Below are positions 2,544-23,976 of a stretch of DNA of 64,000 bases, piece after piece. Every line of letters begins with the position of its first letter. The stretch's first letter is position 1. The DNA comes from Escherichia coli (GTDB lineage Bacteria > Pseudomonadota > Gammaproteobacteria > Enterobacterales > Enterobacteriaceae). The translations under genes and the position numbers were made by a program. Location of the stretch: NCBI RefSeq assembly GCF_017348835.2, contig NZ_CP071375.1; one strand, written 5' to 3'. The notes beneath the pieces are model-generated. The model did no database searches and had not been told where the DNA came from. It saw only the letters and a program-made list of their open reading frames with translations.

Positions 2544-3848
2544 ATGAAACGGACAATGCTCTATCTTTCTCTGCTGGCTGTCAGTTGTAGCGTCAGCGCC
2601 GCAAAATACCCTGTTCTGACAGAAAGTTCGCCAGAGAAAGCAGGGTTCAACGTCGAACGGCTTAACCAGATGGATCGCTGGATTAGCCAGCAAGTGGACG
2701 CCGGTTATCCCGGCGTAAACCTGCTGATTATAAAAGATAATCAGATTGTGTATCGCAAAGCCTGGGGAGCGGCGAAAAAGTACGATGGCAGCGTATTGAT
2801 GGAACAGCCTGTCAAAGCCACCACCGGGACGCTGTATGACCTGGCTTCCAATACCAAAATGTACGCCACTAACTTTGCTCTGCAAAAGCTAATGAGCGAA
2901 GGCAAGCTGCATCCTGACGATCGGATTGCGAAATATATTTCGGGGTTTGCCGATAGTCCAAATGACACCATCAAAGGCAAAAACACGCTGCGGATTTCTG
3001 ACCTGCTGCATCACAGCGGCGGTTTCCCGGCGGACCCACAATATCCGAATAAAGCGGTCGCGGGCGCGTTATATTCCCAGGATAAAGGCCAGACGCTGGA
3101 GATGATCAAGCGCACGCCGCTAGAGTATCAGCCCGGCAGCAAGCATATTTACAGTGATGTCGATTATATGCTGCTTGGATTTATCGTCGAGTCGGTCACC
3201 GGTCAGCCGCTTGACCGCTATGTTGAAGAGTCGATTTATCGCCCGCTCGGCCTGACACATACGGTATTTAACCCGCTGCTGAAAGGCTTTAAACCGCAAC
3301 AAATTGCCGCCACGGAATTGAACGGCAATACCCGCGATGGAGTGATCCACTTCCCGAATATCCGCACCTCCACTCTCTGGGGTCAGGTGCACGATGAAAA
3401 AGCCTTTTATTCGATGGGCGGCGTTTCCGGGCACGCAGGTTTGTTTTCCAATACCGGCGATATTGCGGTGTTAATGCAAACGATGCTGAACGGCGGGGGC
3501 TATGGCGATGTGCAGCTGTTCAGTGCGGAAACGGTGAAGATGTTCACCACCAGCTCTAAGGAAGATGCCACTTTTGGCCTCGGCTGGCGCGTGAATGGTA
3601 ATGCCACCATGACGCCGACGTTTGGCACGCTGGCAAGCCCGCAAACCTACGGTCACACTGGCTGGACCGGAACGGTGACCGTTATCGATCCGGTGAATCA
3701 TATGGCGATTGTGATGTTAAGCAACAAGCCACATTCGCCGGTTGCCGATCCGCAAAAGAATCCCAATATGTTCGAAAGCGGTCAGCTGCCGATTGCAACG
3801 TATGGTTGGGTAGTTGATCAGGTGTATGCGGCGTTAAAGCAAAAGTAA
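2544..3848 (+). CDS. yfeW: Penicillin-binding protein 4B-like serine hydrolase (beta-lactamase fold)
   Basis: ORF 2457-3848 trimmed to ATG 2544 (MKRTMLYLSLLAV signal peptide), which sits just after the murP stop. Confidence 0.88.
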   Translation: MKRTMLYLSLLAVSCSVSAAKYPVLTESSPEKAGFNVERLNQMDRWISQQVDAGYPGVNLLIIKDNQIVYRKAWGAAKKYDGSVLMEQPVKATTGTLYDLASNTKMYATNFALQKLMSEGKLHPDDRIAKYISGFADSPNDTIKGKNTLRISDLLHHSGGFPADPQYPNKAVAGALYSQDKGQTLEMIKRTPLEYQPGSKHIYSDVDYMLLGFIVESVTGQPLDRYVEESIYRPLGLTHTVFNPLLKGFKPQQIAATELNGNTRDGVIHFPNIRTSTLWGQVHDEKAFYSMGGVSGHAGLFSNTGDIAVLMQTMLNGGGYGDVQLFSAETVKMFTTSSKEDATFGLGWRVNGNATMTPTFGTLASPQTYGHTGWTGTVTVIDPVNHMAIVMLSNKPHSPVADPQKNPNMFESGQLPIATYGWVVDQVYAALKQK

Positions 3849-3905: not shown

Positions 3906-4889
<984 letters not shown>

Positions 4890-11577: not shown

Positions 11578-12939
11578 TCAGAAGAACAGTGACGGATCGC
11601 CCGCCCGTTTGGTCAGGCGACCGTTTGCCATAATGCCCATGCTTTCCAGCCAGCGTTCAAACTCCGGTGACGGGCGCAGGTTGAGTAACTGACGCACAGT
11701 GGCGGTATCGTGGAATGCGGTGGTCTGGTAATTGAGCATGATGTCATCACCCAGCGGCATCCCCATGATGTAGTTGCAGCCTGCGGTGGCGAGCAGGATC
11801 ATCAGGTTTTCGTTGAGGTTCTGGTCAGCGTCAGCGTGGTTGGTGTAACAGCAGTCACAGCCCATAGAGATGCCGCTCAGCTTGCCCATAAAGTGATCTT
11901 CTAAGCCCGCACGAATAATCTGGCGGTCATTGTAGAGATACTCCGGCCCAATAAAGCCGACCACGGTGTTGACGATAAACGGATCGTAATGACGCGCCAG
12001 CCCGTAGTTACGCGCTTCCATGGTCACCTGGTCTGCGCCGTAGTTGGCACCCGCCGACAGCGCCGAACCTTGCCCGGTTTCGAAGTAGAGGCAGTTTTCC
12101 CCGGCGATACGGTTGAACTCTGCACCCACTGCGCGCGCTTCGTCGAGCATCGCCAGTTCCACGCCAAACTCTTTCAGCCCTTTTTCACTGCCACAGATAC
12201 TCTGGAAAATCAGCCCGCCTGGTGCGCCACGACGAATCGCTTCGATCTGGGTGGTGACGTGCGCCAGTACGCAGCCCTGAGTTGGGATGTTGAATTTGTC
12301 GATCACGCCATAGATGGTGTCCAGCACGCGGCTTAAGTTTTCCACGTCGTCAGTTACCGGGTTGACGCCGATCACCGCATCGCCCACCCCGAAGGAAAGC
12401 CCTTCGTAGATTTGCGCGGCGATACTTTGCACGTCGTCACGGGTGTCATTTGGCTGCAAACGGGCGCTAAAGGTGCCCGGAATACCGATGGTGGTATTGG
12501 CCTTTTTGATTACCGGCATTTTCTTCGCGCCGTAGATCAGGTCCGCGTTGGAGCAAATCTTCGCTACCGCCGCGACCACTTCCGAGGTCAGCCCTTTGCG
12601 GGTAAAGGCAATGTCGTCCACGCTGGTTTCATCGCTCAGCACATACTCACGCAGTTCGCTGATGCTCCAGTTTTTAATCTGGTTGTAGGCCGTTTCGTTA
12701 ACATCGTCCTGAATCAGCCGCGTCACGCAGTCATCTTCATAGGCAATCACCGGATTATTGCGGATGTCCGCTACGGTCATTTCCGACAACACCTGCTTTG
12801 CTGCCACGCGCTCCTGTGAGCTTGCCGCTGCAACGCCCGCCAGCACATCCCCCGAACGCAGTTCGTTGGCTTTAGCCAGCACCTCTTTTACATCCTTAAA
12901 CTGATATACATTGCCGAACAATGTGGTCTTTAGTTTCAT
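11578..12939 (-). CDS. eutB: Ethanolamine ammonia-lyase large subunit
   Basis: ORF trimmed to ATG 12937-12939 (MKLKTTLFGNVYQF...); 453 aa. Confidence 0.93.
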   Translation of the reverse strand: MKLKTTLFGNVYQFKDVKEVLAKANELRSGDVLAGVAAASSQERVAAKQVLSEMTVADIRNNPVIAYEDDCVTRLIQDDVNETAYNQIKNWSISELREYVLSDETSVDDIAFTRKGLTSEVVAAVAKICSNADLIYGAKKMPVIKKANTTIGIPGTFSARLQPNDTRDDVQSIAAQIYEGLSFGVGDAVIGVNPVTDDVENLSRVLDTIYGVIDKFNIPTQGCVLAHVTTQIEAIRRGAPGGLIFQSICGSEKGLKEFGVELAMLDEARAVGAEFNRIAGENCLYFETGQGSALSAGANYGADQVTMEARNYGLARHYDPFIVNTVVGFIGPEYLYNDRQIIRAGLEDHFMGKLSGISMGCDCCYTNHADADQNLNENLMILLATAGCNYIMGMPLGDDIMLNYQTTAFHDTATVRQLLNLRPSPEFERWLESMGIMANGRLTKRAGDPSLFF

Positions 12940-13050
12940 AAGTCGTTCCCTCAGGAAGAAGTGATGAGTGACATTTTTCACAGCCTTCAAACAATTCTAT
13001 TTCATCGTTAACCCTTGTCCTGTAAGGTAATTACCTTAGTACGCCCGCTA

Positions 13051-13087
13051 TTCATCCTGCCGAACGCAACCGAACGCGCCGGATACA
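13051..13087. repeat. Left att-like imperfect direct repeat (ttcatcctgcc..N17..ccggataca)
   Basis: Shares the 11-bp and 9-bp arms at the same spacing with 22476-22511. Confidence 0.5.
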
Positions 13088-13127
13088 TGAGCGGGGTTAT
13101 CGAGTCGTTAGATCGAGGTATCCGGTT

Positions 13128-14333
13128 TTGAGCAAGACACCACTGACAGCAAAGGCCATAGAGGCCGCACAACCGCAGGACAAGCCCTATAAACTCACCG
13201 ATTCACAGACACCTGGCCTGTTTTTGCTGGTCCATCCCAACGGCAGCAAATACTGGCGATTCCGGTATTGGATAGACAAGAAGGAGCGGTTACAGGCTAT
13301 TGGGGTGTATCCGCTGATTAGCCTCAAGGAAGCCCGCAAACGCGCCACAGAGAGCCGTTTACTGATAGCCCAGGGAATTGACCCAATGGATTTGGCACGC
13401 AAGGAGAAAGCCATTGATGCTCTTAATGCTATCGCCAGTTTTAAAGCTGTAGCAGAAGACTGGATGGCTACCAAGGTGAGCGGATGGAGTGAGAGCTATA
13501 CAAAGCAGGTCAGATCGGCACTAGAGAAAGATGTTTACCCCGTGCTAGGTAAGCGGTCGATAGTGGATATAACGGCCCGTGACGTGCTGGCGTTACTACA
13601 GAAAAAGGAGCGCACCGCACCGGAACAAGCCAGGAAATTACGCCAGCGTATCGGGGAGATCTTCAAATTTGCCGTTATCACTGAACTGGTTAACCGGAAT
13701 CCGGTTGCAGATCTGGATACGGCACTGAAAGCCAGACGCCCAGGCCATAACGCGTGGATACCGATTAATGAAATTCCGGCCTTCTACAAAGCCCTTGAGA
13801 GAGCTGGGAGCGTTCAGATTCAGACGGCAATACTTTTGCTCATCCTCACAGCTTTGAGGACGGCAGAATTGCGCCTGATGCGCTGGGAATGGGTAGATCT
13901 GCAATCGGCAACAATCACATTGCCCGCTGAAGTCATGAAGGCCCGCCGACCGCATGTTGTCCCGCTATCCCGGCAGGCGGTCGAGCTATTACAGGACCAG
14001 TTTACCCGCAGCGGATACAGTGCTTTCGTCTTTCCTGGCCGATTCATGGACAAGCCACTTTCAGCCAGTGCCATCCTTAAAGCCCTGGAGCGTATCGGAT
14101 ACAAGTCGATAGCCACAGGCCACGGCTGGCGGACCACCTTTTCAACGGCGCTTAATGAGTCCGGCAGGTACTCACCAGACTGGATCGAAATCCAACTGGC
14201 CCACGTTCCGAAAGGCGTGCGCGGTGTTTATAACCAGGCGGCCTACCTGAAGCAACGACGGGCCATGATGCAGGATTATAGCGACTGTATTGATTCAATA
14301 CTGGCTGGTGACGGTAATCCACTTGAACCGTGA
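13128..14333 (+). CDS. intZ: P4-family tyrosine site-specific integrase
   Basis: 401-aa ORF; AP2-like N-terminal domain; C-terminal catalytic region with R..HGWR..Y signature (HGWRTTFSTAL, RGVYNQAAY); first island gene beside the left repeat. Confidence 0.88.
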   Translation: MSKTPLTAKAIEAAQPQDKPYKLTDSQTPGLFLLVHPNGSKYWRFRYWIDKKERLQAIGVYPLISLKEARKRATESRLLIAQGIDPMDLARKEKAIDALNAIASFKAVAEDWMATKVSGWSESYTKQVRSALEKDVYPVLGKRSIVDITARDVLALLQKKERTAPEQARKLRQRIGEIFKFAVITELVNRNPVADLDTALKARRPGHNAWIPINEIPAFYKALERAGSVQIQTAILLLILTALRTAELRLMRWEWVDLQSATITLPAEVMKARRPHVVPLSRQAVELLQDQFTRSGYSAFVFPGRFMDKPLSASAILKALERIGYKSIATGHGWRTTFSTALNESGRYSPDWIEIQLAHVPKGVRGVYNQAAYLKQRRAMMQDYSDCIDSILAGDGNPLEP

Positions 14334-14455
14334 ACTATAAGGCCGGGTTTATACTCAATATCGACGGTTGAAGCGCTCAAAAAACAACCGTGACAACCGT
14401 CACAAATATGCAATGTCAATGATCTGAATCAATAAATTGCCAATTCTTCGTTTCC

Positions 14456-14470
14456 ACTTTCGAATGAAAG
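14456..14470. repeat. 15-bp motif actttcgaatgaaag, copy 1 (internal inverted repeat ctttc/gaaag)
   Basis: Exact duplicate of 14591-14605. Confidence 0.7.
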
Positions 14471-14590
14471 CAAGATGCAGAAAAATAAATCACCATGAAA
14501 TCATGTACTTATTAATTTTGACCAAATGGTCCAAAATATCCTCGGTGAATCCATGCTTGCCACAGCCAGATGATTAATATTTAACCCATG

Positions 14591-14605
14591 ACTTTCGAAT
14601 GAAAG
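14591..14605. repeat. 15-bp motif actttcgaatgaaag, copy 2
   Basis: Exact duplicate of 14456-14470, 135 bp away, in AT-rich non-coding DNA. Confidence 0.7.
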
Positions 14606-14733
14606 TAAATTGATAAAAAAGTCAGTGTACACTAACTAAATCGAATATTTTTTGCGCTATGTTTGAATGATAATTGAGCAAAACTTTCGCAAGGTGTGAC
14701 GATGTGAGTAATTAATTTTAACTCTACAATAAA

Positions 14734-14791
14734 CCCATCCCGACAGGGATGGTACCTGGAGCGGAGCGAGAGGGACCATCCCCCTGTTTTT
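14734..14791 (+). terminator. Nested hairpins followed by a T-run (terminator-like; may also act on the minus strand)
   Basis: cccatcccgacagggatgg hairpin overlapping ggatggtacc..N16..gggaccatcc stem, then ccctgttttt. Confidence 0.45.
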
Positions 14792-14884
14792 AGTCTTTTG
14801 AAGTTAGTTTTTTAAGGGATTAAATAATTTTGCCTCAAATGAGACCACACCATACAAGGCCAAAAACAATCAGTATTGCGTGGA

Positions 14885-15400
14885 TCAGGCTGGTTTTTTA
14901 ACTATATACCCCGTATGCCAAGGATTCTGATCGCGCGGCATCGGGTCCGCCTTGATAGACTCATAAAACTTATCAGCCATCTCAGCCACAAACTGTACAG
15001 AGGATTCGAACTCAGCGTTTTTGTGTGCGGGAGGAAACCAGAAGTCTAACACGCCAGCATTTCTATTTTTACATACAGCGTATATAAGATAAGCATCAGA
15101 TGTAGGGGTAACTTTTTCGAAACCACCGGGACCATAACGACCAGTAGACCAGTCATCCCAGCATTGTTCTGTCCCGCTATAGCCGTACTGATTGGTATAA
15201 AGACCAATATTTACATGGACTTTACGTAAGTGGATAGGATATACACACGGGGGTTTATGGAAAAGAGTATCCTTTCCAAAATCAGGATGATGTCCATATC
15301 TCCAATGATAAATAAACGAATCCTTAAAGCTCTTTAATTCATCGTTTGTTTTAAACTTATTATCACTGTAGACCTTACCAATAAATTCATTCTGGACCAT
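14885..15400 (-). CDS. Hypothetical protein (171 aa), distal gene of two-gene island cassette
   Basis: ORF 14885-15403; ATG at 15398-15400; overlaps upstream gene by 14 nt; Trp/Tyr/His-rich, no family recognised. Confidence 0.6.
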   Translation of the reverse strand: MVQNEFIGKVYSDNKFKTNDELKSFKDSFIYHWRYGHHPDFGKDTLFHKPPCVYPIHLRKVHVNIGLYTNQYGYSGTEQCWDDWSTGRYGPGGFEKVTPTSDAYLIYAVCKNRNAGVLDFWFPPAHKNAEFESSVQFVAEMADKFYESIKADPMPRDQNPWHTGYIVKKPA

Positions 15401-15734
15401 CAAAGCTTACACTCTTTAAGCGTTCTTCTCGTGAATCGAATAAATCTTTTGATAAATCACACGCTTGTGTGAACGTCATTTTTTTTACTCGTGGTACAGC
15501 CATAGGCGAGGCCGCATTCATCACTTTGTTTTCTTCGTGATCGAGAGTAGCAGTGTAGCGAAACATGACACTTTTACCGCGCACCAACTGGTATCCTAGT
15601 CGATACGCTAACGCGTCAAGATGCGTCAGACGATTTGTTTTACGCAAGCCAGTCATAGCTTTTGGCTTACGAGTGCGCACAGAAAGGGATTTCCCTTCTC
15701 GCTTAGTCGCAAACAAAGTAACTATTTTTGACAT
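15387..15734 (-). CDS. Hypothetical basic protein (115 aa), proximal gene of two-gene island cassette
   Basis: ATG 15732-15734 preceded by GGAGA RBS; Lys/Arg-rich; stop overlaps start of downstream gene. Confidence 0.55.
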   Translation of the reverse strand: MSKIVTLFATKREGKSLSVRTRKPKAMTGLRKTNRLTHLDALAYRLGYQLVRGKSVMFRYTATLDHEENKVMNAASPMAVPRVKKMTFTQACDLSKDLFDSREERLKSVSFDGPE

Positions 15735-16290
15735 GGTATCTCCTGACATCAATCTGCTAAGGCCATTGTGCCTTGTTTGAATAGTAAACTATTCGCCCAA
15801 TCTACACCAGTGATTTTCTTGACGCCAATAGTAAAGGCAGCATTGCCCACCACAGGCAGACAATGAGACTTCAGATAGCGCACCTTCTATCGCGCACGCG
15901 CTCAATAAAACCAACGACACCGCCATCCTGCCTGACCGATGTTTTTAACCAGCGTATACAGAGAAACAGACAACAGCATGAAATCAGCGTATATCCAGGT
16001 GCAGACGGCACTATCACACAACGCACAGCAGGCTGAGGTGAACACTCAAGCAACTTTATCCCCGCCACCGACCACCGCAAACTATCATGACCGTGCCAAA
16101 TTCAAAAGGAATGGCCCATATAACGCGATGAACACACATAAGCGCTACACTTGCTTACCTGAAAACTTCACAGCGTCACAGCGCGTTTTAGACACGTTAA
16201 AATTAATGAGATTTCATTAAATTTTCACCAGACACCGGAACAAGCCTATAAATCAAAAATGAATTACCGACATGCGCCGCTGGCGTTCAC

Positions 16291-16310
16291 AGGAAGAATC
16301 AATAACTTAG
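16291..16310. repeat. Imperfect direct repeat aggaagaatcaataacttag, copy 1
   Basis: 17/20 identical to 16391-16410, exactly 100 bp downstream. Confidence 0.55.
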
Positions 16311-16390
16311 GCCAATGGCGAAAGTTAAACAAAATCAAGAACTTGCAGAAATGCAGGATGAAGCAGCCGATGTGCCCCGTTGGATTTTAC

Positions 16391-16410
16391 CAGAAGAATC
16401 AACAAGTTAG
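16391..16410. repeat. Imperfect direct repeat cagaagaatcaacaagttag, copy 2
   Basis: See 16291-16310. Confidence 0.55.
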
Positions 16411-16662
16411 ACTCGGTGATTTCACCGACTCCTGCCGGACTACTGACCAGATCGAACCATTCCCCAAATTTGGGGAGAGCAAACCACACGCAGATCCTGC
16501 CAGGCTATTTCATCCCACCGCATCACGTATTTGCACACTTCCCCGCTGACGTGCTCATTTTGATAACGAGTTACCCGCTAGCCCTTGCCACATCACCATT
16601 TGTCGCGCTTTGACTAAATTAGCGACGTGCCTGTTATAGCGATACGCTAGTTATGCAGAAAG

Positions 16663-16682
16663 CGCGACATATCCAGCAACCA
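16663..16682. repeat. Exact 20-bp direct repeat cgcgacatatccagcaacca, copy 1
   Basis: Identical to 16790-16809; lies just upstream of the 16707 ORF start. Confidence 0.7.
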
Positions 16683-16706
16683 TGCACCCTACAGAGGAAT
16701 TGAATC

Positions 16707-17159
16707 ATGCGAGACATAGACTGGTCAGCTATCCCTTTCGATGATTTACCGCCCTGGCATCTGGACTGGGACGTAGACCAACGCGAAAACGCGACATATC
16801 CAGCAACCACCAGCATTACAGCGATGCGCCCCGTAAAGCCTAAGAAATACCAGGCAACCGACCTGATAGCTCACCTCAAAGCTATTGGCGGCGTATTTAC
16901 CGGAAGCAAAGACACGCTTGCACATGAAGTATGGCCCCGGAAGACGCCAGCGGGTCGAACCGTTTTACGCTTACTGACCGAACTGTCAGACAACGGCGAC
17001 GCTGTAGTGATTAACCGTGGTCGTTGTGGCGTGGAAGTTATTCTGACGCCGAAGAACAGGGCACAGACGCCTGAATTAAGCGCACCCAAGCAAATGCATA
17101 GCCAAAAATTAAGTCCAGCAGAACGCGTTATATCGCTTTTAAATGGCATCGGATTTTAA
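16707..17159 (+). CDS. Hypothetical protein (150 aa)
   Basis: ORF with GAGG RBS about 10 nt upstream of the ATG; non-repetitive composition; no family recognised. Confidence 0.5.
   Translation: MRDIDWSAIPFDDLPPWHLDWDVDQRENATYPATTSITAMRPVKPKKYQATDLIAHLKAIGGVFTGSKDTLAHEVWPRKTPAGRTVLRLLTELSDNGDAVVINRGRCGVEVILTPKNRAQTPELSAPKQMHSQKLSPAERVISLLNGIGF
16790..16809. repeat. Exact 20-bp direct repeat cgcgacatatccagcaacca, copy 2
   Basis: Inside the 5' end of the 16707 ORF; 127 bp from copy 1. Confidence 0.7.
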
Positions 17160-17185
17160 TTAATTTTGATGTGGTAATTGCAGGC

Positions 17186-17213
17186 AAAAAAATCCCGCCG
17201 GAGAAAGCGGGGA
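17186..17213 (-). terminator. Intrinsic terminator-like hairpin oriented for the minus strand
   Basis: Minus-strand reading ccccgctttctccggcggg followed by U7 (plus strand aaaaaaa-tcccgccggagaaagcgggga). Confidence 0.5.
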
Positions 17214-17446
17214 AGTGAAATCAATCGTTGTAGTTATAGATCACATTTTGGAGTTGAGGATGGCTAATCCTCGCTAATATTATCGCGCCGTTATGTGATG
17301 GGCGCAATTATTTCTTACTAATTAAAAGTTTTGTAAATATTACAGAATATCCCTTTTCACTATATGGTAAAAGATGTGAAACAGGGACATGAGGAATATA
17401 ATATTAAGTATCAACAGTAATGTTGGTCTTTAATTTCATTCAGGGC

Positions 17447-17490
17447 GCGGTGAGGGTTTTCTCCATATTTTTCCTCACCGCTACTTTTTC
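17447..17490 (+). terminator. Terminator/attenuator-like hairpin immediately upstream of the AlpA-like gene
   Basis: gcggtgagg..N17..cctcaccgc stem then tactttttc; a third complementary segment gaggtgag overlaps the RBS of the next gene. Confidence 0.45.
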
Positions 17491-17501
17491 GAGGTGAGAA
17501 C

Positions 17502-17693
17502 ATGAATGATAGCGAATTAATGACGGTGAACGAGGTAGCCGCTTTATTCGGCGTTACCCGTCGGACAATATTCCGGTGGATGAACAAGATTAAAGGCTGG
17601 CCCGTCCCGGTCAGTCCGATTGGCTCAAGAATTAAGTTTATCCGATCTGAGATTTTGGAATTCTATAAAAACAAAGGCGCTCGCCACCAATGA
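17502..17693 (+). CDS. AlpA/Xis-like small DNA-binding regulator (phage transcriptional regulator family)
   Basis: 63-aa ORF with HTH-like segment VNEVAALFGVTRRTIFRWM; GAGGTGA RBS. Confidence 0.65.
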   Translation: MNDSELMTVNEVAALFGVTRRTIFRWMNKIKGWPVPVSPIGSRIKFIRSEILEFYKNKGARHQ

Positions 17694-17769
17694 AAACAGC
17701 TACTGAGATTATCAAATAACCTATTGATTTAAAAAGCTAGCTACCGCAATTTCTGAAGGAATAGGCAGC

Positions 17770-18096
17770 ATGAAAATCAAAGCAAACACAATTAAAGAAA
17801 TAACATCAATCAAAGTAAAAGGAGCAGATGCCATGCATTCATTAGATAGTTATTTTCAGCGCACGACAGCCCCTAAATCAGCCGCCCAGGAACGCCGTGA
17901 GGAATTCCAGGAAAAAGTGATGCGTTCTGCTGATTATATTGCGGACAAGTTCGCGGAAACGGTTCGGCCACTTGTTGATGAAGTAGCTGATAAACTTCAG
18001 TCTGAAATGCCGGAAGACATGGAAGGCACTGCAAAGGCGCGACTCCTTTTTGAATTAAGTCGTCGTTTCGGCGTGTCAATAAGCACTTTTAAATAA
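17770..18096 (+). CDS. Hypothetical phage protein (108 aa)
   Basis: ORF in co-directional island gene string; no family recognised. Confidence 0.5.
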   Translation: MKIKANTIKEITSIKVKGADAMHSLDSYFQRTTAPKSAAQERREEFQEKVMRSADYIADKFAETVRPLVDEVADKLQSEMPEDMEGTAKARLLFELSRRFGVSISTFK

Positions 18097-18113
18097 TCGG
18101 AGGAGGAAAGACA

Positions 18114-18656
18114 ATGGACGCATTTGATGTACTGACAAACAAAGGCGATGAACTGGTAGCACAGCGTGATAAAACCGCCAACGAAGGGGAACGCGCACTG
18201 TTAAATAAGCAGATTAAAGCGATCCGTATGGCCCAGTTTAAATTAATCAGCAATGAAGTTATCGAAAAAATTAAACCGCAGATCCCACAAATCGTTGCTG
18301 ACGCTATTAAAGCCGCCGGACTGGAGAAACGCATTGCCGGGCTGAAAACGAACGCAGAGAAAATGGAGATGCACAAACAGAGCGGTGCTCCGACTCCGGA
18401 TGAGTACTTCTCACCGGATGCTGAGTTTATGGCGCAGGTTGAGGAACGTCTGGGTAGCTGTCTCACCGAGGAACAGTGTCGCTATTTTGATGGAGTGGAT
18501 AGTTCGGCAGGTATTGACCTGAACTCGTATTTCGGTCGTGAAATTGAGCATTTTGATGCCGCCCCGTCTATGCCGGAGCCAGAACCAGAAATGGCCGCCG
18601 ATCCTGAAGCTGAGCAACGGAAACGCGTATTCAATGCGATAGGGATTCGGTACTGA
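18114..18656 (+). CDS. Hypothetical phage protein (180 aa), acidic C-terminus
   Basis: ORF preceded by GGAGGAAAG RBS (18092-18108); no family recognised. Confidence 0.55.
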   Translation: MDAFDVLTNKGDELVAQRDKTANEGERALLNKQIKAIRMAQFKLISNEVIEKIKPQIPQIVADAIKAAGLEKRIAGLKTNAEKMEMHKQSGAPTPDEYFSPDAEFMAQVEERLGSCLTEEQCRYFDGVDSSAGIDLNSYFGREIEHFDAAPSMPEPEPEMAADPEAEQRKRVFNAIGIRY

Positions 18657-18707
18657 TCGGATAAAAGAAAGCCGGGAATTACCCCGGCTGACTTAACAAT
18701 GTGACCA

Positions 18708-19082
18708 ATGAACAAATCGGACAAGACAAACAGGATAAGCAGTCTCGAAACAATGTTCGGGAACTATATTAGCACAAGTCCGGAGAAAATCATCATGTTG
18801 GCACTACGCATCATGCAGGGCATCGCTAAGACCCTCGCAGAACATGTCTTAGACCTGAAACATTCGCCACTGAGCAAACAGGCCATGAAGCGCCAAACGC
18901 TTCGTCTGTGGGCTGAATATTCGCTTGGAACTATCAATAAAATCATCGACATGAAATCGGGGCCGAGCAACCAGAGCGCGGAGGAAATGGAGTTCATCAG
19001 GCGTTTAATTCTCATTCGCAGAGACATTCATAGCCAGTTACACAGCGTGGGAATCGATATTAATGATGGGACGGGCGATTAA
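18708..19082 (+). CDS. Hypothetical phage protein (124 aa)
   Basis: ORF in co-directional gene string. Confidence 0.45.
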   Translation: MNKSDKTNRISSLETMFGNYISTSPEKIIMLALRIMQGIAKTLAEHVLDLKHSPLSKQAMKRQTLRLWAEYSLGTINKIIDMKSGPSNQSAEEMEFIRRLILIRRDIHSQLHSVGIDINDGTGD

Positions 19083-19120
19083 TTTTCGGACAAGTACTAT
19101 GCGCGCGCGAGGAGCTGAAC

Positions 19121-19351
19121 ATGAAGCAAGATATTGCAGACAGGCTGGAGATACTCGAAGGCCAGCGGGCAGAAGCGAAACAACTACGTAAGCAGGCCAG
19201 AAGAGCGCACAGGAACTACGAAGCAGAATCACTGACCGCTTTCATCAACTTCACAAACCGTTGCATCCTGGAGTGTTACAGGGAGGATGCAGAAAACTGG
19301 CTGGATTCATTGCCAGAACAGACTCTGCATGAACTGAACGGCGACCAGTAA
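19121..19351 (+). CDS. Hypothetical phage protein (76 aa)
   Basis: ORF with GAGGAG RBS upstream. Confidence 0.45.
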   Translation: MKQDIADRLEILEGQRAEAKQLRKQARRAHRNYEAESLTAFINFTNRCILECYREDAENWLDSLPEQTLHELNGDQ

Positions 19352-19638
19352 ATAAATCCAGTACGTTTCCCGCAGTGCGCATAACGTACATTATGTGAAA
19401 AACGATATGGATATATATCAGTCTGACTTCAATGAAGAAAACGGACTTCCAGCATCAACCACAAAGAAGTATGGCTAATGCAGCTTTATAAGCCATTGAT
19501 TCTATTAAACGATATTTTTTGTGATTGGTTGAAGCAAACCAAAACACGATGCCACTGAAGCGTTAATAAACTGTTTCAATGTGAAATTATCAGAGTAAAG
19601 AACAATTTGGAGGGTCCGCAAACGCGGATAACAATATC

Positions 19639-21819
19639 ATGAGTGGAAATCTCGGGACCATATACTACGAGGTCGATGCCCGCACTGGGAAACTTCTTAT
19701 CGCGCAACAGCAGGCGGAAGAGGCGTTCGATCGCATTGAACGAGGAGCGCGGAAGGCTGATAGCGGCGTCAAAAAGTTAAATACGCAGATGACTAAAACA
19801 TCAGCCGCAGTCAAAACCAACCTTTCCCCGGCAATCCGTAACGCATCATACCAGATCGCAGACCTTGCCACTCAATTGCAGATGGGCGGTAATGCGCTTC
19901 AGGCGTTCGCTGTGCAGGGTGCGCAGTTATTAGCTGGCTTTGGCACGATGGGCGCGGTAGCTGGCGCGGTGCTGGCTATCGCTGGCGCTATGGGTGGAAG
20001 CCTGGCACAAGGCGCTGATAGTGCAGCCGGATCGGTTGAGTATCTGGACAAGGCGATCACCAAACTGAACGAGGTCATAGCTGTAAATGAACAGGGCGTG
20101 ACGGTGATGAGTGATAGTTACGCCAGACTTTCTAAGGTTAACGCTGAAGTAGCGAAACAGATGCGGAACATGGCTGAAATTCAGGCAATTGCAGCACTGC
20201 GTGACCTGAAAGAACAGGCAAGCCAGGCACAGGGGGAAATGTCGTCATTCTGGCGCAGCTTGCAGGGTGGTAAAGCTGACGCAGCAGCAGCAGCACAGGC
20301 ACTTGATGATCTTGGAATCACAACCAACGACTACAAAGAGGCGATAGCCATACTGAACGCCAATCAGCCGGATACACAGGCGCAAATGGCAACGCTAGCT
20401 AAGTCCGTGATGTACATAGGCGAGGAATACAACCTGACAAACCAGCAAGCCTACGAGTTCATCCGAGCACTAAATAGGGCCGCGACAACGAGAACGCCGG
20501 AAGCCATGCAGGAACTATCGGGCTTCATGCAGGTATTGCTACAGGACACCGAAAACGGTAACGAGGCATTCCGTGAACTGGCTATCAAATTCGTTGATGC
20601 ACAAACCAAAGGCGCAATGCTGGAAGACCAACTAAACCGACTGAAAGGCGCTATCAGTGACGCAGCCACAGAAGCCAGAAACGCCAATTTTACCACTATG
20701 CTCAACACCGTCGCCGCACGCCTGGCAGCCATTGAGCAAGGTTGGGAGGCAGGCGTTAGGATGCAGATGAAAGCCCAGGGCTACACTGAAGAGCAGATCG
20801 ATGAATATGTGAACATGGAAACGGCGTACCGTGATGCAAAAGCCGCTTTGGACGAGAAGAATAAGGCCGACCGTGAAGCTATTGCGCTATCCAAACGCCA
20901 GGCCGCAGAAGCAGCCCGCAAGGCAAAACAGGAAGAAGCTGAAGCACAACGCAAGGCCAAACAGTTAGCCGCGCAGAAGGAGCAGGCAGGACGCTTTACG
21001 CAGCAAGTAATGACGGAATACCTGACGACCGTAGATCCGGCAACAGGCAAGGCGTTTAACCCTGCCGCACAAGTAGAAATGCAGGAGCAGCAGAAGAAAG
21101 CGGCGCTGGATAAATACAGACAGTTGGGCGTCCTGGATGAACAGCAGTACCAGAACACGCTAACCGCCATCCAGAAAACCGCGTCAATGCGCCGCCAGCA
21201 AATCATCAAAGACGAGGCCGACACGTTATTCAACAATCAGCAACAGTTGATCGGCACATTTGGCGATTTCTTCGGTGAACTGTCTGGAGTCATAGCAGAC
21301 GGTGCAGGTGAGCAAAACGCGGCATATCAAGCGCTATTTGCTGTGCAGAAGGGTTTTGTATTGGCATCAGCAGCTTTAAGCCTTCAGAAAGCGCTTGCTG
21401 AGGCAAACGCCTTGCCTTTCCCGGCTAATCTTCCGGCCTATGCGCAAGCTATGTCAGCAGGCACGCAGATCATTTCAGCTATTCGTGGAATAGCTTTCGG
21501 TGGCGGACGCTACAACGGCGGCGCGGTTGGTGCTGGCAACCTGTACCGCGTGGGTGAACACGGTAAGCCTGAGATATTCAAGGCGAACAATGGCAGCCAG
21601 TACATGATCCCAGGTGATAACGGTCGCGTGATAAGTAATCGTGACATTGGCGGCGGTGGCGGCGTAACAATCAACAGCCCGATCACCATTAACACTACGA
21701 ATGGCTTCAGTGATGAAGACTCAAGGCGTCTTGAGGAAGCGATGAAGCGCGTAGCTATGGGCGTTTGCAGGCAGGAGTCAACCAGACCGGGAGGAATGTT
21801 AGCCCCGCGCCGTCGTTAA
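19639..21819 (+). CDS. Phage tail tape-measure-like protein (lambdoid H-like), orphan
   Basis: 726-aa Ala/Gln-rich coiled-coil ORF; C-terminal GNLYR motif and Gly-rich tail as in lambda H; no neighbouring tail genes. Confidence 0.6.
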   Translation: MSGNLGTIYYEVDARTGKLLIAQQQAEEAFDRIERGARKADSGVKKLNTQMTKTSAAVKTNLSPAIRNASYQIADLATQLQMGGNALQAFAVQGAQLLAGFGTMGAVAGAVLAIAGAMGGSLAQGADSAAGSVEYLDKAITKLNEVIAVNEQGVTVMSDSYARLSKVNAEVAKQMRNMAEIQAIAALRDLKEQASQAQGEMSSFWRSLQGGKADAAAAAQALDDLGITTNDYKEAIAILNANQPDTQAQMATLAKSVMYIGEEYNLTNQQAYEFIRALNRAATTRTPEAMQELSGFMQVLLQDTENGNEAFRELAIKFVDAQTKGAMLEDQLNRLKGAISDAATEARNANFTTMLNTVAARLAAIEQGWEAGVRMQMKAQGYTEEQIDEYVNMETAYRDAKAALDEKNKADREAIALSKRQAAEAARKAKQEEAEAQRKAKQLAAQKEQAGRFTQQVMTEYLTTVDPATGKAFNPAAQVEMQEQQKKAALDKYRQLGVLDEQQYQNTLTAIQKTASMRRQQIIKDEADTLFNNQQQLIGTFGDFFGELSGVIADGAGEQNAAYQALFAVQKGFVLASAALSLQKALAEANALPFPANLPAYAQAMSAGTQIISAIRGIAFGGGRYNGGAVGAGNLYRVGEHGKPEIFKANNGSQYMIPGDNGRVISNRDIGGGGGVTINSPITINTTNGFSDEDSRRLEEAMKRVAMGVCRQESTRPGGMLAPRRR

Positions 21820-22315
21820 CCAAATCCCACGCCAGGGGGATAGACTGGCGGCCTTTCAATTCCGTTGAAACGACGGAATCAAACACCCCGATTCAGGGTA
21901 TTTAAACGTCGCGTTTCACGACATTTATCTAAGTCATTGATTTATATTGTAACTCATAATTGAGTTGCGCCGACCATCCCGCCACAAACGCTCCTACGCA
22001 AAAATTCCCTCACAATTACCCTGCCAATTTTCCAGATTTCACGTATACGCGCCTATATCCCCGCCACCGGATACACGCCCGCTTATACCGGATACTTTTA
22101 TGCCATCATTATTAAATCCATTAATAATCATCAAACCATAATTAGCACAACTTATAATCGAACAAAAAACACACAACATTGATAATGATTTTTTCTGGTT
22201 ATACTTATCTAAAAAAGTGGTATGGGAAGTAACTTATTGTTTTGTAATTACAAATTTATTGCGTGGTCAGATGAACAGACTTGCGCACCTCCCGAAAAAC
22301 ACGCGAAAATCGAAG

Positions 22316-22426
22316 TGTTCTTTCTTTTTTTGTTTTTTATTTTTTTATTTTCTCTTTTTCTTCTCTTTCCGGTTCTCTTCTTTTTCTGGTTTTGGTTTTT
22401 TCCTTTTTTATTTTTATTCTTTCTTC
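22316..22426. repeat. ~110-nt homopyrimidine (T/C-rich) low-complexity tract
   Basis: About 90% pyrimidine on the top strand by eye; no plausible coding frame. Confidence 0.7.
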
Positions 22427-22475
22427 AGGGTTGTGATCAAACACACCAAAACATTTTCGCCACAAAAGCGTTAAT

Positions 22476-22511
22476 TTCATCCTGCCAGACCATTCACTTT
22501 CACCGGATACA
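22476..22511. repeat. Right att-like imperfect direct repeat (ttcatcctgcc..N16..ccggataca)
   Basis: Partner of 13051-13087; a further partial copy (caccggatacac) at 22065-22076. Confidence 0.5.
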
Positions 22512-22572
22512 CAGCCGGATATAATCCCGCTAACACCCAGCCACCCAGCATCACGCCTGATAACTACCGTAT

Positions 22573-23976
22573 TCAGGAAGGAAATGCGAGTGATTTCACC
22601 GTCACCGGCACAACCGATCCGCCAAAAAGAGGCGTACCAATGTCGATATAGTCCCCCGCGCGGACAATCACTTCGTCAATGACTGCCAACGGGAGTTGTT
22701 GTAGCTGTGGGCGCAACAACATGCCCAGAGCTTTACCAAAGTCCTGCCCGGCCACCACCAGCAGGGGATGCGGATTCGGAAAACGCGCGACGAAATCGAC
22801 CAACGCGTTGATGACCGTCAGTACCGCGGCGTAACGCACAGGCAGCGAGGCGGGAAGCGCCAGCACGTACGCGTCAGTTTTGGGATCAAGATCCAGCTGA
22901 ATCAGCGCCTGTTGCCAGGCACTCACCAGATCCGTTTCATCAATCGGGATCGCCACCGGCAAATTGCGCAGCGGCAGTTGTACGCCCTCCAGCCAGATTG
23001 TGCTGCCAGAGAGCGAAAGGGTATGTGCACCCGCGCCAATCACCGTGGCGCGTACGGTTTGCGCCGGAAACTGCACGTTCATCTCACGCAGGCGCGGATG
23101 GTCATGCAGCGCCGTTGCCAGAAGCGGGCCAATATCGGCAAAACAGAACGGGTCGGCGGGCTGGTGGCGATAACATTCGCCCACGCCGCCAGAAAGCGTA
23201 ATGATTTCGGGCGTAACACCTGCGGGCAGCAAACCGGTTTGCATTAATGCCTGCGCGAGCGGCGAAAGCGTTCCGTCAATCACTTCGACAATCAGCTCTG
23301 CCATCCGCCAGGTAACCTGCACCAGCTGCGCGCCGGTCAGCGAACGGGCGTCGGTGCCTGCGCCGAAGCACTCATCCACAATCATCTGCCCCGGTTTATG
23401 AGCGTAAACCACGCGCCCCTGGCTGTCGGTTTCCAGCAGGCGACCACCGACGTTGAGGCAGGCAGTGCCGCTGATTTTTCCGGCATCGAACAGGGCGTAG
23501 TTCGCGGTGCCACCGCCGATGTCGATATTCAGTACCCGACACAGCCGTTGTTCAGAAAGGGTTTGCGCCCCGGCACCGTGACCGGCGATCACGGATTCGA
23601 GGTGCGGCCCGGCGCTGGCGACGACAAAATCGCCCAGCGACTGAGAGAGCGCCATCACCGCCGGGCGAGCATTGCGGGTTTTCGCGCTTTCACCGGTGAT
23701 GATGATGGCACCAGAATCAACGCTTTCCGGCGCAATGCCCGCAGCCTGATATTGCTCTAAAATCAGCGATTTCAGTTCCGCTTCTTTTAAACCACCCTGT
23801 TTATCGACAGGGGTAAAGAACACCGGGCTTTGCCAGCTAATTTCGCGTTTGATGAATTCGTAGCGCGGCACCTGCGACACCGCCGCACGGTTAACCAGTT
23901 CCAGGTGGGAGAAAATCACCTGGGTGGTGGTGGTGCCGATATCGATACCGACGCTCAGTAGCTGGCGAGTGTTCAC
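22573..23976 (-). CDS. eutA: Ethanolamine ammonia-lyase reactivating factor
   Basis: 467-aa ORF; conserved eut order. Confidence 0.92.
   Translation of the reverse strand: MNTRQLLSVGIDIGTTTTQVIFSHLELVNRAAVSQVPRYEFIKREISWQSPVFFTPVDKQGGLKEAELKSLILEQYQAAGIAPESVDSGAIIITGESAKTRNARPAVMALSQSLGDFVVASAGPHLESVIAGHGAGAQTLSEQRLCRVLNIDIGGGTANYALFDAGKISGTACLNVGGRLLETDSQGRVVYAHKPGQMIVDECFGAGTDARSLTGAQLVQVTWRMAELIVEVIDGTLSPLAQALMQTGLLPAGVTPEIITLSGGVGECYRHQPADPFCFADIGPLLATALHDHPRLREMNVQFPAQTVRATVIGAGAHTLSLSGSTIWLEGVQLPLRNLPVAIPIDETDLVSAWQQALIQLDLDPKTDAYVLALPASLPVRYAAVLTVINALVDFVARFPNPHPLLVVAGQDFGKALGMLLRPQLQQLPLAVIDEVIVRAGDYIDIGTPLFGGSVVPVTVKSLAFPS

Follow-up and report, generated by a model that had tools for sequence, protein, structure and literature searches.

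A repeated motif in the attachment arms of a CPZ-55-family cryptic prophage and the bracketed right-end segment of the Escherichia coli eut island

Introduction

The right end of a genomic island in Escherichia coli raises the question of how its present arrangement came about. A 12-mer, CACCGGATACAC, occurs there exactly at 22065-22076 and again at 22501-22512, with a stretch of AT-rich DNA between the two copies. In the original prediction, which was made from the sequence alone, the first copy was taken for an internal partial copy of a border repeat, and the segment enclosed by the two was considered a possible small element, or a second integration, nested at the right junction. Here we consider what the repeat is, where the island ends, and how the two copies came to flank the segment between them. 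All positions refer to the window, the whole stretch of 64,000 nucleotides that was analysed.

Results

The island occupies the eutB/eutA site

The sequence from 21700 to 22900 is 100% identical to the chromosome of E. coli PE164, in whose annotation eutB and eutA lie on either side of the island (Table 1). The insertion separates the eutA stop from the eutB start and has an intZ-type integrase gene beside eutB; the island is a 9.6-kb cryptic prophage of the CPZ-55 family (12959-22572). Besides intZ it has genes for a YafO-like toxin pair and for a 726-aa tape-measure-like protein, along with several small ORFs; the tape-measure-like gene is the final large one before the 22065-22530 region.

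An empty-site query, in which the 5′ end of eutB was joined to the 3′ end of eutA, was compared against 5,426 complete genomes. Both parts of the query were found in one short place in 4,965 of these, and therefore approximately 8% of complete genomes (about 460 islands) are occupied, which matches the 8% occupancy of the eut site published previously (PMC6379469). The empty site reads ...cat aagtcgttccc TCAGGAAG gaaatgcg..., with a single copy of the core, and TCAGGAAG is present at both junctions of the occupied site, as is expected for the short core of a lambda-type attachment site. CPZ-55 has been described as flanked by an identical 8-bp duplication (PMC6379469). Because both the empty site and this earlier description place the junction at the 8-bp TCAGGAAG, the right border of the island is 22573 and not 22501. 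Host recombination took place at this 8-bp core (12951-12958 and 22573-22580), and the stretch 22501-22530, originally regarded as the right border copy of the repeat, is instead a pair of motifs within the attR arm. The island cuts eutA off from eutBCLKR of one operon (11578-12990 and 22573-23976), and occupation of the eut site has been linked to impaired ethanolamine use (PMC6379469).

Table 1. Positions of the features discussed in the text.
Feature	Position	Strand	Remarks
eutB	start 12939	-	PE164 annotation
Left core TCAGGAAG, attL junction	12951-12958	+	8 bp; just upstream of eutB start
11-mer TTCATCCTGCC, left copy	13051-13061	+	93 bp inside left core
attL arm pair of CCGGATAC	13079-13086 and 13118-13125	+ and -	just upstream of intZ start; kept in K-12
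intZ, tyrosine integrase with N-terminal arm-DNA-binding domain	13128-14333	+	Pfam; intZ in PE164 annotation
63-aa HTH_17 (AlpA/Xis-like) protein, candidate excisionase	17502-17693	+	Pfam HTH_17, E=7e-9
726-aa tail tape-measure-like gene	19639-21819	+	PHROG 1538, tail length tape measure, E=3e-103
Conserved 65-bp post-tape-measure module	21989-22053	+	92% match to K-12 2563176-2563240
Internal motif cluster	22054-22095	+	CCGGATAC at 22067-22074 and 22088-22095; originally called 'internal partial copy'
Deletion junction CCGGATAC / TTTTATGCC	22095-22096		homology breakpoints exactly here (megablast)
Conserved right-end module, non-coding, ~390 bp	22096-22485		30% G+C
Pyrimidine tract	22315-22426	+	112 nt, 88% pyrimidine, 72% T, 16% C
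11-mer TTCATCCTGCC, right copy	22476-22486	+	87 bp before right core, at edge of 390-bp module
attR arm pair	22503-22522	+	CCGGATAC 22503-22510 and CCGGATAT 22515-22522; originally called 'right border copy'
Right core TCAGGAAG, attR junction	22573-22580	+	overlaps the minus-strand eutA stop codon (TCA)
eutA	22573-23976	-	PE164 annotation

IntZ and other genes of the island

IntZ has the Pfam domains Arm-DNA-bind_3 (E=8e-24), Phage_int_M (E=7e-30) and Phage_integrase (E=3e-22). The first of these (PF13356) covers residues 6-92 and is the separate arm-binding domain that characterizes lambda-type integrases. The family is narrow: a protein search returned E. coli proteins at 90% identity or more and a few at 67-73%, after which identity fell to 46%. 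The closest phage relatives, in the phage database, are IntS-type integrases with 42-43% identity; a single match (41%) was found in genome_contigs and none in viral_contigs. For the 63-aa HTH_17 protein the PHROG match is to family 66, 'excisionase and transcriptional regulator' (E=2e-9), and the protein is a candidate recombination directionality factor of the element.

Two other parts of the island were noted in passing. On the minus strand, opposite to the remaining island genes, a YafO-family toxin-like ORF of 172 aa overlaps an upstream ORF of 121 aa (14885-15752), and the two are likely to be a toxin-antitoxin pair carried by the island. Between this pair and the next genes sit two pairs of direct repeats, one of 44 nt at 16267-16410 (100-bp spacing, 75% identity) and one of 25 nt at 16658-16809 (127-bp spacing, 96% identity), which are possible operators or iterons.

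The 12-mer contains a motif that is repeated in both arms

The two positions given above hold all the exact copies of CACCGGATACAC in the 64-kb window. When one mismatch is allowed, three matches are found against 0.21 expected, a number reached by 0/100 shuffles. The original description of the copies as sharing 12 identical leading bases plus scattered matches is accurate, since 22065-22094 and 22501-22530 agree at 19/30 positions without gaps (12 + 7). Local alignment of the two copies yields a match of 23 nt only, equalled by 2/500 shuffles, and the similarity is therefore motif-sized and does not reflect a long duplicated block.

The 8-mer core of the repeat, CCGGATAC, occurs seven times in the window against 1.27 expected (0/100 shuffles reach seven), and five of the seven copies fall in three clusters, located in the left arm, at the internal site and in the right arm. 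The nonamer that had been noticed in the left border is indeed there, as CCGGATACA at 13079-13087, and is accompanied by an inverted copy of the motif at 13118-13125. Left-arm copies lie 121-167 bp inside the left core and right-arm copies 51-70 bp inside the right core. The four copies of CCGGATA[CT] that begin at 13079, 13118 (minus strand), 22503 and 22515 occupy the same positions in K-12 and in the variants read; for the attR arm pair this was seen in all island variants read, with K-12 and plasmid pMAR2 among them. What the arms hold is thus a repeated motif that is distinct from the core and conserved in position among relatives. Because IntZ carries an arm-DNA-binding domain and the arm positions are conserved, we read CCGGATAC(A), of 8-9 bp, as the candidate arm-type binding site of IntZ, which is most likely its role.

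The 11-mer TTCATCCTGCC has two copies in the window, in the same orientation and each approximately 90-97 bp inside its core; it may be one more site at which the attachment arms bind protein. A further sequence, CCGGATACACAG, lies within the tape-measure-like ORF at 20368-20379 and repeats the 12 bases (22503-22514) with which the attR arm site begins; this copy is possibly due to chance.

More distant islands of the family came from the protein search combined with contig look-ups. Two proteins with 68-69% identity to IntZ are encoded in contigs that carry an island at the same eutB-TCAGGAAG site. In these divergent islands the left arm is almost wholly changed, with CCGGATAT kept approximately 51 bp and GTATCCGG approximately 12 bp before the int start, and the attR copies are degenerate, with GGGATACA and GGTATACA in the right arm. 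Larger islands (about 16-18 kb) at the eutB/eutA site with a 68% identical IntZ end in a stand-alone ORF of 141 aa directly beside eutA, at 15145-15570 of the locus from GCA_025155425.1 (contig JAJRON010000026.1) and at 17217-17642 of a second such locus. This ORF consists of the arm-DNA-binding domain alone, and is 38% identical to the IntZ N-terminus. It could be what is left of an integrase, or else a factor in its own right that binds arm sites.

The internal cluster belongs to a module that follows the tape-measure gene

The 106 bp that end at 22095 form a conserved module found after the tape-measure gene in many islands, and the internal pair at 22067 and 22088 belongs to this separate module. 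K-12 carries the first 65 bp of the module and then lacks approximately 52 bp, which is exactly the part that contains the cluster. The cluster is present in the islands of the window, ATCC 8739, TOK001, C3 and QML220601; in C3 and QML220601 the sequence reads ...CCGGATACACGCCCGCTTATACCGGATA, after which come AACAAAGG and a hairpin.

At the end of the cluster there are 0-2 extra CCGGATA heptamers, one in TOK001 and two in ATCC 8739. This variation in copy number resembles that of a microsatellite (3099-3119 and about 2000-2030 of two extracted loci) and looks like neutral slippage. In QML220601, the most divergent copy, the cluster has 3/41 differences as compared with 17/69 in the upstream flank (p=0.024), and this lower divergence is a hint of constraint.

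Homology breaks at 22095/22096 and probable deletions between two hairpins

Megablast comparison separates the relatives of this region into two kinds. Genomes of the ATCC 8739 type match 21990-22095 only, and those of the ES5 type match from 22096 only. What comes after the cluster in ATCC 8739, C3 and QML220601 is, in order, a hairpin, 3-4 ORFs (2.5-2.9 kb), a second, terminator hairpin, cacccggcaccgcgccgggtttt, and the attR arm; the approximately 2.5 kb behind the cluster in ATCC 8739 comprises three ORFs and two hairpins. In ES5 the second hairpin is intact, as cacccggccccgcgccgggttttt, and stands before atgccatcatt..., which corresponds to the window from 22100 onward. As the two sets of breakpoints meet at this point, the window lineage has a deletion that fuses CCGGATAC (22095) to the T-run of the second hairpin (22096), with no microhomology at the junction.

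The junction of the window is common to seven genomes at 99.4% identity or more. Two other arrangements were found. In PV15-279 (O157:H7) and AHB5, CCGGATAC is joined to GCGCCGGGTTTTT, and the right half of the hairpin is kept. TOK001 and LR-28 keep the 3′ arm of the first hairpin, ACCCAGGCC, a sequence similar to the 5′ arm ACCCGGCC of the second, and in them it is fused to the remainder of the second hairpin. Because the hairpin remnants are graded among these junction types, the comparison argues for three independent deletions between the two hairpins. Among the islands read from the 5,426 complete genomes, none was recognised that holds the cluster, the cargo and the 390-bp module together, and the parent of the deletion is for this reason inferred from the hairpin remnants.

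A conserved right-end module with a pyrimidine tract

The composition of the segment between the copies is as originally described, AT-rich and containing a pyrimidine tract (Table 1). A sensitive search found the module in 149/5,426 complete genomes, at 150 places, and all but one of these genomes (148) have a single copy. The commonest version is 81% identical, accounts for most of the copies and is located to the right of a cargo with gadC-like and murI-like genes and IS1. The copies examined lie either at the right end of a eut island or on EAF-type plasmids in which a copy of that end adjoins umuC. Plasmids account for six copies, and the EAF-type plasmids that carry the module include pMAR2. 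It is absent from the islands of K-12, ATCC 8739, MB52, BMH-17, C3 and QML220601. At the K-12 and ATCC 8739 junctions 6-10 unrelated bases replace it between the T-run and CCATTCAC.

An alignment of 12 sequences distinguishes four module types, in which the tract is near-identical and is the best-conserved block, the remainder being 77-95% similar. The same alignment revealed neither terminal inverted repeats nor a target duplication at the module ends. An Rfam scan of 21700-22700 (E<=1) gave no hit in 22096-22485, its sole sub-threshold hit lying outside the region at 21849-21931 (22.8 bits against a gathering threshold of 51.4, E=0.89). Folding of 22096-22572 as RNA gave no structure signal on either strand (z -0.18 and +0.05), a promoter and terminator scan of 21700-22700 gave fewer hits than shuffled sequence and no convincing promoter, and the phage database contained no DNA match to 21960-22580.

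A coding function for the tract was considered and set aside. The 47-aa minus-strand ORF annotated there by PGAP is a Lys/Glu/Arg-rich low-complexity peptide, a plus-strand ATG at 22222 is not conserved in ES5, and scattered indels of 1-8 nt between module types, not in threes, break any frame. Nor is the module a decayed copy of the stand-alone arm-binding ORF of divergent islands, as tblastn finds intZ itself only.

The right end of the island is also carried on plasmids

The EAF-type plasmids of enteropathogenic E. coli (EPEC) carry the right end of the eut island, with the gadC-like and murI-like genes, IS1, the 390-bp module, the arm and the core. The copy in pMAR2 (NC_011603.1) is located at about 86.7-87.3 kb (4380-4520 of its extracted locus, with 340-460 of a second extracted locus). 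Island homology in pMAR2 stops exactly at TCAGGAAG and is followed by a truncated plasmid umuC; the intact plasmid umuC reads TCCCGCAG at this point, a 5/8 match to the core. This suggests that the junction arose by an integrase-mediated insertion at a putative pseudo-attachment site. Because the pMAR2 copy takes in the module and the arm and breaks off precisely at the core, the module is placed inside the integrating unit.

Discussion

Origin of the bracketed segment

The two copies of the 12-mer are probably separate clusters of one IntZ arm-type motif, which a deletion of cargo brought to flank a module that survived it. Under this explanation IntZ would bind CCGGATAC(A) arm sites on both sides of the 8-bp core, and the internal cluster would be a vestigial or accessory set of such sites. 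The order in full-length relatives is the post-tape-measure module, a hairpin, 2.5-2.9 kb of variable cargo, the terminator hairpin and the right end. In the window lineage one deletion took out both hairpins, up to their outer bases, with all that lay between them, and joined CCGGATAC (22095) to the terminator T-run (22096). The approximately 390 bp now between the clusters are the remainder left by this deletion and not an insert. The bracketing of this AT-rich stretch by the 12-mer is the result of a lineage-specific cargo deletion, and represents ordinary prophage decay and mosaicism.

The nested mini-insertion first proposed, in which 22096-22500 would be a small mobile or second integrated element that duplicated the border repeat at the junction, is by comparison highly improbable. 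Parts of that proposal have held up: the motif is tied to the island ends, the 12-mer does stand on both sides of the segment in this window, and 22096-22485 is separable and differs in presence among islands. The size polymorphism that was sought among related islands also exists, but it stems from cargo loss and from the presence or absence of the module and is not bounded by the repeat. The same segment is found without the 12-mer on its left in ES5, GD33, RL2-1X, PK13, 203740 and pMAR2, where its left neighbour is a terminator hairpin or IS1, and its limits (about 22100 and 22485) differ from the positions of the repeat copies. A nested element is also difficult to reconcile with a sequence that has neither inverted termini nor a target duplication, that is single-copy in all but one genome, and that lies at the right end of the island in the copies examined. 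Finally, the module to which the left 12-mer copy belongs is separated from the right end by 2.5-2.9 kb in full-length islands.

A different history, which we regard as unlikely although not negligible, is that the internal cluster was the right arm of an older and smaller element that ended after the tape-measure gene. The cargo, the module and attR would then derive from a second element, integrated in tandem at the regenerated core, that later lost its integrase and left arm. Tail genes adjoin attR in lambda-like prophages, and the 2-4 copies of the arm motif in the cluster, together with its position at the point where a conserved left part of the island gives way to a variable right part, fit such a scheme, as would the stand-alone 141-aa ORF beside eutA in divergent islands if it were the remnant of a second integrase. 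Sequence 22020-22064 also aligns weakly with the attR arm at 22480-22530, at a level equalled by 1/1000 shuffles; for the ATCC 8739 copy the figure is 300/1000, and similarity beyond the motif is marginal. Against this history, TCAGGAAG is absent both near 22065-22095 and behind the cluster in ATCC 8739. The nearest core look-alike, a weak one, is approximately 130 bp downstream in ATCC 8739 (in K-12, approximately 100 bp beyond the corresponding position), at a ribosome-binding motif that occurs repeatedly. The cargo of window-type relatives contains no attL-arm or integrase remnant.

It is also improbable that the motif is the operator of a regulator such as the HTH_17 protein, or has no function at all, with the cluster a slippage microsatellite that resembles the arms by chance. 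The attL pair does form an inverted repeat around the promoter and ribosome-binding region of intZ, the heptamer number differs between strains, and K-12 lacks the internal cluster with no obvious consequence. The four arm copies nevertheless keep conserved distances on both sides of the core, those of attR are in direct orientation and far from any promoter that would need control, the motif is commoner than chance, and IntZ has a domain for binding arms. Cargo deletion between clusters of a candidate IntZ arm-type motif is the reading that we prefer.

Possible roles of the right-end module

The CPZ-55 element of K-12 still excises, in fewer than 1 in 100,000 cells (PMC3105296). As it does so while lacking both the internal cluster and the module, neither is essential for excision, and the 390-bp module would serve the right end as a dispensable element that acts in cis or insulates. 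Our best guess is that it assists the right arm as an accessory to it, or buffers transcription beside eutA. That it represents an undescribed functional cis element of this island family is doubtful. This proposal draws on the near-invariant 112-nt tract and its carriage into EAF plasmids. Under it the module could be an extended att arm that loads accessory proteins, as the presence of TTCATCCTGCC near both cores hints, an insulator between the island and eutA, or an unstructured CU-rich RNA, and the internal CCGGATAC cluster might be a second integrase-loading site that promotes the loss or exchange of cargo.

The importance of these observations is limited. For IntZ and the CPZ-55 family they provide a map of the attachment sites together with a candidate motif for the arm sites; in the literature that we found, the recombination sites of this family are described only as an 8-bp duplication. 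They also identify a variable cargo region that has repeatedly been lost by deletion from hairpin to hairpin, and flag a conserved non-coding module at the right end. For annotation, the island should be ended at 22572/22573 rather than 22501, and the eut operon of this strain recorded as split by the island.

Comparison with known systems

In being approximately 400 bp long, AT-rich, non-coding and present in some islands only, the module resembles miniature inverted-repeat transposable elements (MITEs). Unlike these, it is present once per genome with a single exception, lacks both terminal inverted repeats and a target-site duplication, and occupies the same position inside attR wherever examined.

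Islands with integrases of the P4 family include KplE1/CPS-53, which encodes IntS with TorI. IntZ shares their architecture of Arm-DNA-bind_3 / DUF4102, Phage_int_M and catalytic domains, whereas the target of the present island is intergenic within an operon and not a tRNA gene. The phage database contained no closely related phage, the best hit to IntZ being at 43% identity with no match in DNA.

Lambda Int is a heterobivalent tyrosine integrase that acts on att sites with the arm-type sites P1, P2 and P′1-3, and integrases of this type bridge arm and core sites to build the recombination complex. The island is similar in that its integrase has a separate arm-binding domain, a short core stands at the crossover, a small Xis-like HTH protein (the candidate excisionase) is encoded, and both arms carry copies of a separate 8-9-bp motif, the candidate arm site, within approximately 170 bp of the core. 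It differs from the lambda-type arrangement in that its core is only 8 bp, and in that a third motif cluster is 0.5 kb away from the core, and 2.5-3 kb away in full-length islands, which is too distant for it to take part in the same complex.

The closest counterpart is CPZ-55 of K-12 (intZ, yffL-yffS), which occupies the same eutA/eutB site with the same 8-bp TCAGGAAG duplication and likewise has an annotated intZ, four CCGGATA[CT] arm copies and the 65-bp post-tape-measure module. The island in the window differs from it in lacking yffQRS and in carrying the YafO-like toxin pair, a complete 726-aa tape-measure-like gene, and both the internal CCGGATAC cluster and the 390-bp module.
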